A stretch of 64,000 nt of DNA from Candidatus Woesearchaeota archaeon (lineage in GTDB: Archaea; Nanobdellota; Nanobdellia; Woesearchaeales; JACPBO01). Made by a program: the position numbers and the translations under genes. Below are positions 14,052-18,589 of this stretch, in pieces. The notes beneath the pieces were generated by a model, which ran no database searches, was not told the origin of the DNA, and worked only from the letters and a program-made list of their open reading frames with translations. Each line of letters begins with the position of its first letter. Position 1 is the stretch's first letter. The stretch lies in the NCBI GenBank assembly GCA_030651135.1, contig JAUSCS010000006.1, positions 68,851 to 132,850 of the forward strand, in the 5' to 3' direction.

Positions 14052-15578
14052 ATGGCATTGACAATCGCTGACATGGCAACATTCTGCAAGAGGAAAGGCT
14101 TTGTTTATCCTGATGCGGAGATCTATGGCGGAATGGCTGGATTCTGGGATTACGGCCCATTGGGAGTTGAATTAAAAGGCAATATAAAAAAAGAATGGTG
14201 GAAAACATTTGTCCAGCAGAGGGAAGATGTCTTCGGAATTGACGGAGCAATAATAACAAGCGCAAAAGTATGGCAGGCATCCGGCCATGCTGACTGCTTT
14301 ACAGACATCTTGGTTGAATGTAAAAAATGCCATGCAAGAATCAGAGGCGATTCATTGGTTGCAGATCTTCTCAATATCGCTGCAGAAGGATTGTCAGCTA
14401 CAGACATTGACAAATTAATAAAAGACAACAACATAGACTGCCCAAACTGCCATGATGATTTTGAGAATGCAAAGCAGTTCAATTTGATGTTCAGGACAAA
14501 CATCGGTCCAATTGAAAACACAAATTCTCTTACTTATCTAAGGCCGGAAACAGCGCAGCTCATCTTTACAAATTTCAAATTAGTCCAGGAAAACTCAAGG
14601 GCAAAGCTGCCTTTCGGAATAGCGCAGATGGGAAAGGCATTCAGGAATGAAATAAGCCCAAGAGACTTCTTATTTAGGTCCAGGGAATTCGAGCAGATGG
14701 AGATTGAATTCTTCACTCATCCGGATAAAACAGACGAATGTATTTTCTTCAGCGAAGTCCAGGGCATGAAAGTGAATGTTTTAACAGCAGATGCCCAGAA
14801 AAAAGGCGGGCAGCACAAGGAAACAACAATAAGCGAGCTGGCTGAAAATAAGCTTGCAAACAAATGGCACGCTTACTGGTTAGCATCATTCTACAAATGG
14901 TTTACCGATTTGGGCATCAAAAAAGAAAACTTAAGATTAAGGGAGCATAAAGAAGAAGAATTAGCTCATTATGCCGGAGCATGCTTTGATATCGAATACA
15001 AATTCCCATTCGGCTGGAAAGAGATACACGGAAACGCTGACAGAAAGCAGTTTGACCTGAAGCAGCACATGAAATTCTCGAAAAAGGATCTGGGTGTTTT
15101 CGATGAAGCTACAAAGCAGAAGGTTATTCCGTCTGTTGCATCTGAGCCCTCGCAGGGAGTTGACCGTGCCTTATTGGCATTCATGTTTGACGCATACGAA
15201 TACGATAAAAAGAGAGAGAATATTGTTTTAAAGCTGCATCCAAAATTGGCCCCAGTAAAAGCAGGCATCTTCCCATTAATCAAAAAAGAAGGCCTTGACA
15301 AAAAAGCAAAAGAAATCCTGAATGATTTAAACAAAGAATTCAACTGCTTTTATGATGAATCAGGCAGCATAGGAAGAAGGTATGCGAGGCAGGACGAAAA
15401 CGGAACTCCGTATTGCATCACAGTTGATTTTGACAGCCTGAAAAACCACGATGTCACGCTAAGAAACAGGGATGATACAAAGCAAATAAGAGTAAAAATC
15501 AAGGATTTAAAAGAAACACTAAGACGGCTGGTTAATTCTGAGCTTGAATTTGAATATGCAGGCCACCCATTGAAATAG
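14052..15578 (+). CDS. glyS: Glycyl-tRNA synthetase (alpha2 type)
   Basis: YLRPETAQ, FRNEISPRDFLFRSREFEQMEIE, EPSQGVDR, GSIGRRYARQDE. Confidence 0.96.
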   Translation: MALTIADMATFCKRKGFVYPDAEIYGGMAGFWDYGPLGVELKGNIKKEWWKTFVQQREDVFGIDGAIITSAKVWQASGHADCFTDILVECKKCHARIRGDSLVADLLNIAAEGLSATDIDKLIKDNNIDCPNCHDDFENAKQFNLMFRTNIGPIENTNSLTYLRPETAQLIFTNFKLVQENSRAKLPFGIAQMGKAFRNEISPRDFLFRSREFEQMEIEFFTHPDKTDECIFFSEVQGMKVNVLTADAQKKGGQHKETTISELAENKLANKWHAYWLASFYKWFTDLGIKKENLRLREHKEEELAHYAGACFDIEYKFPFGWKEIHGNADRKQFDLKQHMKFSKKDLGVFDEATKQKVIPSVASEPSQGVDRALLAFMFDAYEYDKKRENIVLKLHPKLAPVKAGIFPLIKKEGLDKKAKEILNDLNKEFNCFYDESGSIGRRYARQDENGTPYCITVDFDSLKNHDVTLRNRDDTKQIRVKIKDLKETLRRLVNSELEFEYAGHPLK

Positions 15579-15625: not shown

Positions 15626-16750
15626 ATGCAGGGCTTGGCTATTGTGAACAAAGGCATTGAAAATACTGCCGCTTTGGAAATTAAGGAATTGATTAAATCA
15701 AGCCCTGAAATAAGGGAAAGCTGTGTTATTTTCGGCATTAAAGATTTTGATGATCTGGCCAAATTATGCTATACAGCCCAGAGCGTCAACAGGATTCTCT
15801 TTTTATTGGATTCTTTTAAAATAAATTCTGTTGAAGATATCAAAGAAAGGATTGAAAAAATAAACTTTGATAAATTTTTAAATAAAAACAGGACCTTTGT
15901 TGTAAGATCTGAAAGAATCGGCGAGCATAGCTTTACAAGCTCCGAGATTGAAGCAGAAACAGGCGAATTCATCATTGAAAAAATAAAGAAAGACAAAAAA
16001 TACACTCAAAAAGTCGATCTGAACAATCCAGGTATTATTGTTTTCGTCTACATCTATAATGATGACTGCTACATGGGCATAGATTTTGCAGGAAGAGAGC
16101 TTGATAAAAGGGATTATAAAATATTTTCAGCACCTAATTCATTAAAGGGAACAGTTGCATATGCTCTTGTAAGAATCGCCGAATATAATAAAAAAGAAAT
16201 AATTTTAGACCCATTCTGCCTGAGCGGCGAGATTCCAATAGAAGCAGCGATGTTTGCCAATAACTTTCCGGTCAATCATTTCTCAAGAGACAAGTTTGCA
16301 TTCAATAAGTTTTTGAAATTTAATTTTGAGAAGATCGATAAAAAAATAAAAAAGGCCAGATTAAAAATAATGGGCTTTGCTTCGCTTACAAATCTCAAAT
16401 CCTGCCAGAAGAATGCGAAGATTGCTGGAATTGAAAAATCAATCGGCATTACAAAGATAGATGTTGACTGGCTCGACATAAAACTGAAGAAAAACTCAAT
16501 AGATAAGATAATAAGCTATCCCCCCCAGATAAGCATTGCAAGAAACAATGAAAAAGACATTGAGAAAATATACAAAGAACTATTCTACCAGGCAGAATAT
16601 ATCCTGAAGAAAAAAGGCATGGCTGTTTTATTGACAAGGAAAGATGAACTGCTGAAAAAATATGCCGAAGAGTATAAATTCAAGCTGATCAATGAAAAGA
16701 CCATTATGCAGGGCAAAGAGGAAATGAAAGTTTTGATATGGGAGAAATGA
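15626..16750 (+). CDS. THUMP-domain RNA methyltransferase-like protein (Trm14/RlmL-like) with degenerate SAM motifs
   Basis: THUMP segment (FVVRSERIGEHSFTS...VDLNNP), LKGTVAYAL, DPFCLSGEIPIEAA, SYPPQ. Confidence 0.8.
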   Translation: MQGLAIVNKGIENTAALEIKELIKSSPEIRESCVIFGIKDFDDLAKLCYTAQSVNRILFLLDSFKINSVEDIKERIEKINFDKFLNKNRTFVVRSERIGEHSFTSSEIEAETGEFIIEKIKKDKKYTQKVDLNNPGIIVFVYIYNDDCYMGIDFAGRELDKRDYKIFSAPNSLKGTVAYALVRIAEYNKKEIILDPFCLSGEIPIEAAMFANNFPVNHFSRDKFAFNKFLKFNFEKIDKKIKKARLKIMGFASLTNLKSCQKNAKIAGIEKSIGITKIDVDWLDIKLKKNSIDKIISYPPQISIARNNEKDIEKIYKELFYQAEYILKKKGMAVLLTRKDELLKKYAEEYKFKLINEKTIMQGKEEMKVLIWEK

Positions 16751-16756
16751 ATCAGA

Positions 16757-17863
16757 ATGTATAAAATTCTCAAAGAAGACCCAAAAACAAAAGCCAGAAT
16801 AGGTAAATTAAAAACAAGGCACGCTGCAGCTGAAACTCCATTTTTCATGCCGGTTGCGACAAAGGCAAGTGTAAAATTAATAACATCTGACGAACTTAAG
16901 GAGATGGGTGCAAAAGCGATAATCTGCAATTCTCTTGTCTTGTTTTTAAGGCCTGGCCTTGAAATAATAAAAAAAGCTCATGGCCTGCACAAGTTCATGA
17001 ATTTCAATGATGTGATTTTTACAGATTCTGGAGGGTTTCAGACAGCAGATAAGTCATTTGCACCAGTTATAACAAACAATGGAGTTTTGTTTAAAAGCCC
17101 TTTTGATGGGGTGCCTCATCTTATAACTCCTGAAAAAGCAGCCAATATACAGGAAGAGCTTGGCTCAGATGTTGCAATGGTATTAGATGATATGCCTCCT
17201 TACGGGAAAAGCAAGGACTATGTTATTGAATCGCTAAAGAGAACTCATGACTGGGCATCAAGGTTTAAGAACTTTCACAAAGATTCAAAACAATTGGTTT
17301 TTGGCATAACGCAGGGAGGAACTTTCAAGGATCTGAGAAAAATAAGCTGCGAATTGATTTCAAAGCTCGATTTTGATGGAATTGCATTAGGCGGATTGTC
17401 AATTGGAGAGCCAAAAAAATTAATGTACGGAATGATTGATTACTCTGAAAGATTTCTGCCAAAAGACACGCCCCGCTATCTGATGGGAGTTGGATCGCCA
17501 GAAGACATCATTGATTGCGTCAGCCACGGCATTGATGTTTTTGACAGCTGTATGCCGACAAGGAATGCAAGGCACGGAACATTGTTTACGTCGAATGGCA
17601 AAGTCCTGATTGAGAATAGGGAATATAAGGAGGATTTTCGCCCATTAGATAAAAACTGCGATTGCTATGTCTGCAAAAATCATACAAGAGCATATCTAAA
17701 TTATCTGATTAGGATGAAAGAGCCGACAGGATTAAGATTGGTAAGTTATCATAATGTCTATTTCGTACAAAATTTAATGAAAGAGATCAGGACAGCAATA
17801 AAAGAGAACGGGTTTGAAAAGTTCAGGAAAGAATTTTTGAAAGGGTATTTGAAAAAGAAATAG
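16757..17863 (+). CDS. tgt: tRNA-guanine transglycosylase, bacterial/queuosine type
   Basis: TPFFMPVAT, DSGGFQ, PRYLMGVG, DVFDSCMPTRNARHG, CDCYVC...HN Zn site; 368 aa with no PUA extension. Confidence 0.93.
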   Translation: MYKILKEDPKTKARIGKLKTRHAAAETPFFMPVATKASVKLITSDELKEMGAKAIICNSLVLFLRPGLEIIKKAHGLHKFMNFNDVIFTDSGGFQTADKSFAPVITNNGVLFKSPFDGVPHLITPEKAANIQEELGSDVAMVLDDMPPYGKSKDYVIESLKRTHDWASRFKNFHKDSKQLVFGITQGGTFKDLRKISCELISKLDFDGIALGGLSIGEPKKLMYGMIDYSERFLPKDTPRYLMGVGSPEDIIDCVSHGIDVFDSCMPTRNARHGTLFTSNGKVLIENREYKEDFRPLDKNCDCYVCKNHTRAYLNYLIRMKEPTGLRLVSYHNVYFVQNLMKEIRTAIKENGFEKFRKEFLKGYLKKK

Positions 17864-17924: not shown

Positions 17925-18209
17925 GTGTCAGAACTCATATTCAGCCACAAGCACAGGGATAAGAATTACATAGTTGAAATCGACATTTACAAGGTTGAAA
18001 AAGATGAGTTTCACCCAGAGGGATTCCAGTATTCGCTTGCTTTGATTAAAGACGGAAAAAGAATATTGGGCTATGACAATCATGAAAGAAAAGGCCACCA
18101 CATTCACAGAGGCAATATGGAGCTGCCTTACGATTTTGTTGACGAATGGAAATTAGTTGAAGATTTCCAAAAGGAAGTTGAAAAAATAACAAAAGGCGAG
18201 GTAAAATGA
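17925..18209 (+). CDS. Putative toxin, DUF6516/TumE-like
   Basis: YSL...RILGYDNHERKGHHIH motif; 4-nt overlap with a downstream HTH gene; GTG start. Confidence 0.7.
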   Translation: MSELIFSHKHRDKNYIVEIDIYKVEKDEFHPEGFQYSLALIKDGKRILGYDNHERKGHHIHRGNMELPYDFVDEWKLVEDFQKEVEKITKGEVK

Positions 18210-18589
18210 AAATCAAAAACATAACAGTCGAGGTAAAGCCGCTTAAGGATGTTCTGAAGGAAGCGGCTGAAGCTATGAGTGAAGTTAGAAAAGGAAAAAG
18301 TATAAAGGCCAGAAAAGGGCTTAGTTTTGGCAGCGTGGAATCCTTCAGGGAATTTTTTACTCCGAGAAGAATCGAGCTGCTGCAGGTTATAAGGCATAAA
18401 CATCCGAAATCGATCTATGAATTGGCTAAATTAACAAACAGGGATATAAAGAGCACAGCAGTTGATATTAAGATTCTTGAAAAATATGGCTTAATAGATA
18501 CGAAAAAGGTGCATGTTGAAGGCGGTGTAGGTTACAAGGTGATGCCTGTCTTTGATTACGACAAGCTGACAGTTGACATTGCTGTGTGA
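18206..18589 (+). CDS. Putative HTH antitoxin (HVO_A0114/TumA-like)
   Basis: LSFGSVESFREFFTPRRIELL...PKSIYELAKLTNRDIKS. Confidence 0.75.
   Translation: MKIKNITVEVKPLKDVLKEAAEAMSEVRKGKSIKARKGLSFGSVESFREFFTPRRIELLQVIRHKHPKSIYELAKLTNRDIKSTAVDIKILEKYGLIDTKKVHVEGGVGYKVMPVFDYDKLTVDIAV

Follow-up and report, generated by a model that had tools for sequence, protein, structure and literature searches.

The tgt gene at positions 16757–17863 (+ strand) of the window, the 64,000-nucleotide stretch analysed here (C7:68851-132850), raises the question of what a bacterial-type tRNA-guanine(34) transglycosylase (Tgt) does in an archaeon, and which base it inserts when its pocket carries Met and Ile at the two positions where the canonical preQ1 enzymes have Cys and Val. 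In the usual description, archaea lack queuosine, and nearly all of them have archaeosine.

The reading frame is intact, begins with ATG and encodes 368 amino acids, and the opposite strand of 16757–17863 is full of stops. Pfam assigns it TGT as its sole domain (residues 12–364, 471 bits), with no PUA or other C-terminal domain beyond residue 364. Against the NCBIfam models, the protein scores 457.1 bits with TIGR00430, the equivalog of the bacterial G34 enzyme (cut-off 306.75), and stays below the cut-offs of both the archaeosine TGT (ArcTGT) model TIGR00432 (161.9 bits, cut-off 350) and the DpdA model NF041059 (23.1 bits, cut-off 200). The nearest PDB matches are the Tgt proteins of T. maritima, E. 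coli and Z. mobilis (E-values of 1e-97 to 1e-90); human and mouse QTRT1 match at 1e-84, and the ArcTGT of P. horikoshii (1iq8) at merely 6e-25. Close homologues in NCBI are named Tgt of Candidatus Woesearchaeota. The gene is the only PF01702 match in the genome, with no second, QTRT2-like TGT paralogue. Judged by these comparisons, it is a bacterial-type Tgt in an archaeon, of clearly bacterial origin and probably acquired laterally, and the description of a PUA-less bacterial-type TGT given in an earlier note on this DNA is borne out.

Alignment shows that the protein retains all catalytic, base-binding and zinc residues of bacterial Tgt. The catalytic nucleophile, Asp280 in Z. mobilis, corresponds to Asp263 (codon at 17543–17545, + strand) in the motif FDSCMPTR and is invariant in all 151 rows of the family alignment described below. 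The general acid/base Asp102 is represented by Asp90 in TDSGGFQ (17024–17026, +), likewise an invariant column, and the base-recognition residue Asp156 by Asp144 (17186–17188, +). Gly213, Leu214 and Glu218 are the conserved counterparts of Gly230, Leu231 and Glu235, and Met243 is that of Met260. The zinc site (CxCxxC...H; 17657–17752, +) is formed by Cys301, Cys303, Cys306 and His332, which align with the Z. mobilis ligands Cys318, Cys320, Cys323 and His349.

The structural alignment that the earlier note had proposed as a check was run on an AlphaFold2 model derived from 44 homologues (mean pLDDT 94.5), which superimposes on the bacterial structures 2ash, 1efz and 1q2r with TM scores of 0.93–0.95 and rmsd values of 1.6–2.0 Å; 2ash is T. 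maritima Tgt and 1q2r the covalent tRNA intermediate of Z. mobilis Tgt. According to both the model and Pfam, a zinc subdomain is inserted into the TIM barrel and further domains are lacking. In its length, its single-domain barrel with zinc subdomain and its catalytic and base-recognition residues, the protein thus matches the bacterial enzymes of Z. mobilis, E. coli and T. maritima (EC 2.4.2.29), with which it shares 39–44% structure-based identity. As the genome has one TGT-family gene, the enzyme probably acts as a homodimer in the manner of the bacterial enzymes, whereas eukaryotic QTRT1 needs a QTRT2 partner.

Residue-by-residue alignment with Z. mobilis chains of native length (4e2v_A, 386 aa), which also provide the reference numbering, places Met146 (codon at 17192–17194, +) at Cys158 and Ile216 (17402–17404, +) at Val233, exactly as the earlier note had read them: LDDMPPY aligns with FDE(C)TPY, and GGLSIGE with GGLAVGE. 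This pocket alignment was obtained with a 97-aa fragment searched against the PDB at an E-value of 1e-8 (at 1e-20 it gave no match). The canonical preQ1 pair Cys158/Val233, which is highly conserved but not universal, is therefore replaced by Met146/Ile216. The further claim that this combination fits neither known type of pocket stands with respect to the textbook pairs Cys/Val and Val/Gly, but fails for position 233, where, by alignment, the crystallised T. maritima Tgt also has Ile. In an alignment of 151 rows, made up of the query and 150 family representatives at 50% identity, Val occupies position 233 in 96 rows, Ile in 28, Leu in 10 and Gly in 5; at position 158 there are 110 rows with Cys, 13 with Val, 8 with Met and 6 with Leu. 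The picture shifts among the 120 closest homologues, 108 of which have Ile at position 233, with Val (57), Met (33), Cys (23) and Leu (6) at position 158.

With an unchanged backbone, the pocket would probably be narrowed by the side chains of Met and Ile, which are larger than those of Cys and Val. Our literature search found no paper treating Met at position 158. The Cys158Val variant of Z. mobilis Tgt still inserts preQ1, with a KM that rises from 0.9 to 16 µM and a kcat that falls 3-fold (Biela et al. 2013, PMC3660597). The same study found that fitting queuine requires Val233Gly, and Quaiyum et al. (2024, PMC11570991) give the signature of queuine-salvaging TGTs as GG[LS][AS]G, i.e. with Gly at position 233. 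The queuine-inserting enzymes (QTRT1/QTRT2 and the bTGT of Chlamydia trachomatis) resemble the present one in having a residue other than Cys at position 158 and in their dependence on salvage, but they have Gly233 and no QueA or QueH, whereas Ile216 is found here together with both of these enzymes.

Met/Ile is not peculiar to this gene; it is the ordinary state of a DPANN Tgt clade. A wider comparison took in 80 species representatives of GTDB, with the archaeal rows falling into two groups. One, with Cys/Ile, comprises Methanoperedens, Thermoplasmatota and Hydrothermarchaeota; it groups with bacteria and often presents queA-tgt pairs. The other is the DPANN group of 51 rows, in which position 158 is Met in 28, Val in 21, Gln in 1, Leu in 1 and Cys in none. 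Three public MAGs in the host’s GTDB order (L021, L042 and L059) carry the title ‘uncultured Methanosarcinales archaeon’, which looks wrong. As a separate observation, Phe occupies the Cys158 position in seven CPR bacteria (Doudnabacteria, Saccharibacteria and other Patescibacteria) and one Methylomirabilota MAG (L071, L072, L078, L081-L083, L085 and L086), which makes the CPR another small-genome group without the canonical Cys.

We then consider the host’s order, sampled as 121 genomes, one per family, including the host (G000). A Tgt tree of this sample resolves two fully supported clades. In the query’s clade of 55 rows, position 158 is Met in 30, Val in 21, Leu in 2 and Cys in 2, so that Met or Val accounts for 51/55, and position 233 is Ile, Leu or Met as a rule. 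On the best tree there were at least 10 changes between Met and Val, or at least 4 if well-supported branches alone are counted, and the choice between them was unrelated to the presence of QueA in a comparison of independent tree pairs, few of which were informative. A genome of the same genus (G076) has a 90% identical Met/Ile Tgt, the next relative (G073) has a Val/Ile Tgt, and both also have QueA, QueH and YhhQ.

The second Tgt clade of the order (26 rows: G119:C1:83102-84280, G098:C1:32099-33274, G074:C20:354066-355238 and 23 others) is of a different kind. Cys158 is kept in 17/26 of its members, but their loop is remodelled (FDECTSP ... GG-SLG[KRN]), with a one-residue deletion and without Glu235, and differs from the published queuine motif. 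These loop-deleted genes usually adjoin or accompany yhhQ and never occur with QueA. One genome (G074) holds both types on a single contig, the loop-deleted gene at C20:354066-355238, adjoining yhhQ, and a Val/Ile DPANN-type gene at C20:401586-402683.

The rest of the host genome bears on the substrate of the enzyme. No que genes are present in the window, as the earlier note stated, and all que-related matches in the genome lie outside C7:68851-132850. Three adjacent intact genes are found on the same contig, about 341 kb further along from tgt (coordinates without strand): yhhQ, encoding a queuosine-precursor transporter (C7:427620-428099; TIGR00697, 139.5 bits, cut-off 51), queA (C7:428183-429163; NF001140, 397 bits, cut-off 324) and queH (C7:429163-429678; 215 bits). 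In this genome, tgt is not in an operon with them. A profile search of the genome found no QueD, QueF or QueT; QueC was not found either, the single QueC-like match (30.7 bits) proving to be a TtuA/NcsA-type thiolase. With these four proteins not found and a YhhQ-family transporter present, the earlier suggestion that the base is salvaged is well supported.

Candidate tRNA substrates are present as well. Loops with U33-G34-U35 occur in two tRNA-His(GUG) genes, tRNA-Asn(GUU) and an intron-bearing tRNA-Tyr(GUA); tRNA-Asp was not confidently detected by ARAGORN or Rfam RF00005. ARAGORN at a lowered threshold returned 482 ‘tRNAs’, which were noise and unusable for locating tRNA-Asp. Although the genome is rated 100% complete, ARAGORN finds only 19 tRNA genes and Rfam RF00005 only 24, and many of them carry introns at unusual positions.

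QueA and QueH act only downstream of preQ1-tRNA, and as QueA needs this substrate, we argue that the Tgt found here inserts preQ1. In bacteria, the combination of Tgt, QPTR/YhhQ, QueA and QueG or QueH without QueCDEF is the pattern of preQ1 salvage (PMC11570991, PMC5699537). The host’s gene set fits this gene-content scheme, by which preQ1 salvage is predicted; the differences are that the host is archaeal and that the substrate of the transporter is putative. Compared with bacterial Tgt, the present enzyme shares Ile233 with T. maritima and has QueA and QueH encoded in its genome, but it has Met in place of the highly conserved Cys158, resides in an archaeon and would use preQ1 that is imported rather than made by the host. 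An archaeal precedent exists in the pathway of DPANN and Methanosarcinales described by Castelle et al. (2021, PMC8204110), who report co-localised QueA, QueH-like and Tgt genes in 34 archaeal genomes, including 12 from DPANN. The same three enzymes and the same kind of organism are involved here, but the genes reported there are co-localised, whereas here tgt lies far from the other three. The text of that paper on the pathway does not discuss pocket residues.

Combining these observations, we consider it likely that Tgt catalyses the first committed step on a salvage route from preQ1 to queuosine in this host, with the following steps proposed from gene content. The YhhQ/QPTR transporter would import preQ1 made by other organisms. 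Tgt, presumably expressed and homodimeric, would exchange G34 for preQ1 in the tRNAs with a U33-G34-U35 loop, predicted to be those for His, Asn, Tyr and presumably Asp, via a covalent Asp263-ribose intermediate and with Asp90 as acid/base and the CxCxxC...H zinc site in place. QueA would add the epoxycyclopentanediol moiety from SAM to preQ1-tRNA, and QueH would reduce epoxyqueuosine to queuosine. The Met146/Ile216 pocket appears compatible with preQ1, perhaps at an altered affinity, and bears no mark of a new substrate; for a Met158 enzyme, the case for preQ1 is one of gene content.

The strongest competitor to this scheme is a Tgt of altered specificity, in which Met146/Ile216 selects preQ0, a queuine-like base or another salvaged analogue. 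The earlier note leaned towards such a different 7-deazaguanine or target, and the bulk of the two side chains could be read in this way. Substitutions of Cys158 do shift preQ1 affinity in Z. mobilis (PMC3660597), and tgt is found without QueA, QueH and YhhQ in many genomes of the clade, among them G016, G025 and G028, which are closed or 99–100% complete and carry Met- or Val-type genes. We nevertheless regard this explanation as improbable for the present gene. The intact QueA and QueH of the host need preQ1-tRNA; Met/Ile is the norm of the clade; and in four other families (G023, G035, G050 and G100) queA and queH share one cluster with a Met/Ile tgt, a cluster that in G023 and G035 includes yhhQ too. 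A further locus (L017) has queA and queH after a Met/Val tgt. The repeated interchange of Met and Val, unrelated to QueA, also argues against a pocket tuned to another base. Of the candidate bases, queuine would need Gly at position 233 (PMC3660597, PMC11570991), and preQ0 could not be processed further, QueF not being found.

In the census of the order, bacterial Tgt is found over the respective cut-off in 83/121 genomes (82/120 without the unpublished G112, which has a Tgt match and is counted in these tallies), YhhQ in 45/121, QueH in 28/121 and QueA in 27/121, all of the last also having Tgt; absence calls in genomes other than the host’s are limited by MAG completeness. Among the 80 Tgt genes of the order whose pocket residues were read, QueA is co-present with 11/29 Met-type, 6/21 Val-type and 5/28 Cys-type genes. 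Conversely, QueA was not found in 18/29 genomes with a Met-type and 15/21 with a Val-type tgt, and as these include closed or 99–100% complete genomes that keep tgt, the DPANN Tgt clade does not always work with QueA. One could imagine, as a long shot, that the base selectivity of the clade (Met/Val158, Ile/Leu/Met233) has been shifted for scavenging. Such a pocket might exclude queuine or preQ0, or accept a 7-deazaguanine other than preQ1 derived from a host, and the genomes with tgt only would then install a wobble base undescribed in archaea.

A second way to explain a bacterial-type Tgt in this organism is as a stand-in for the missing archaeosine enzyme, modifying G15 of the D-loop instead of G34. 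The profile search found no archaeosine TGT in the host genome, and none of the 121 genomes of the order has an ArcTGT over the family cut-off; the order as a whole seems to have given up archaeosine. The protein itself makes the role very unlikely. ArcTGT (P. horikoshii 1iq8) belongs to the same catalytic superfamily and also has an archaeal host, but it possesses C-terminal C2/C3/PUA domains that are absent here. Furthermore, the present protein scores as the G34 equivalog and far under the ArcTGT cut-off, genes for preQ0 synthesis were not found, and the gene is found together with QueA and QueH, both of which work on position 34.

The genomic surroundings bear on another doubtful possibility, namely that a bacterial gene was misbinned or is in decay and plays no part in the host. 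Its clearly bacterial origin and the 3% contamination estimated for the genome (1.415 Mb, rated 100% complete) would be compatible with that, but the reading frame is intact, every catalytic residue is kept, and tgt sits on a 731-kb contig amid archaeal genes. Its companions in the window include genes for Nop56/58, for translin and for an RFC-type AAA+ clamp loader, together with those for archaeal-type aminoacyl-tRNA synthetases and for a tRNA-Trp with an intron; the archaeal setting of tgt is real and the host is a Woesearchaeota-type DPANN archaeon. The 90% identical copy in the same-genus genome and the presence of bacterial Tgt in 83/121 families of the order likewise speak against a stray gene, which we give very little credence.

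The gene just upstream of tgt (15626–16750, +) encodes a Trm14-like THUMP methyltransferase (249.7 bits, below the equivalog cut-off of 280) and ends 6 nucleotides before tgt, so that the two are possibly co-transcribed; as a conserved partner of Tgt it was rejected, a homologue being found near tgt in 1/80 related loci and there on the other strand. Further upstream, 47 nucleotides before the THUMP gene, lies a glycyl-tRNA synthetase gene (14052–15578, +). A GlyRS gene is also found near tgt in one Woesearchaeota MAG and seven CPR loci (L054, L071, L072, L078, L081-L083 and L085), with 41–45% identity to that of the window, an arrangement that may be left over from a shared gene order or from co-transfer. 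Directly downstream of tgt, at 17925–18589, a TumE toxin-like ORF (94 aa) overlaps an HVO_A0114/MarR-like ORF (127 aa), a probable toxin-antitoxin pair.

A DpdA-like DNA 7-deazaguanine transglycosylase would belong to the same superfamily, but with 23 bits against a 200-bit cut-off in the DpdA model and no dpd-type neighbours seen near tgt in the window, the chance of this is negligible.

On the preQ1-salvage reading, this gene represents an oddity already known rather than a new type of enzyme, because its pocket residues are normal for its archaeal group and because the gene set had been reported in 2021 (PMC8204110). Going by the account of the pathway in that paper, QueA, QueH and Tgt in DPANN archaea were already published, and the gene described here is mainly one more case. 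What is new is that a DPANN clade is systematically without the ‘specificity’ residue Cys158 and that Met and Val are interchangeable in its place. Furthermore, the host and its order show the reverse of the usual archaeal pattern, with no ArcTGT and with bacterial Tgt in about two-thirds of the sampled families. This pattern fits heavy gene flow from bacteria to DPANN archaea and a dependence of these organisms on their neighbours for a micronutrient base.
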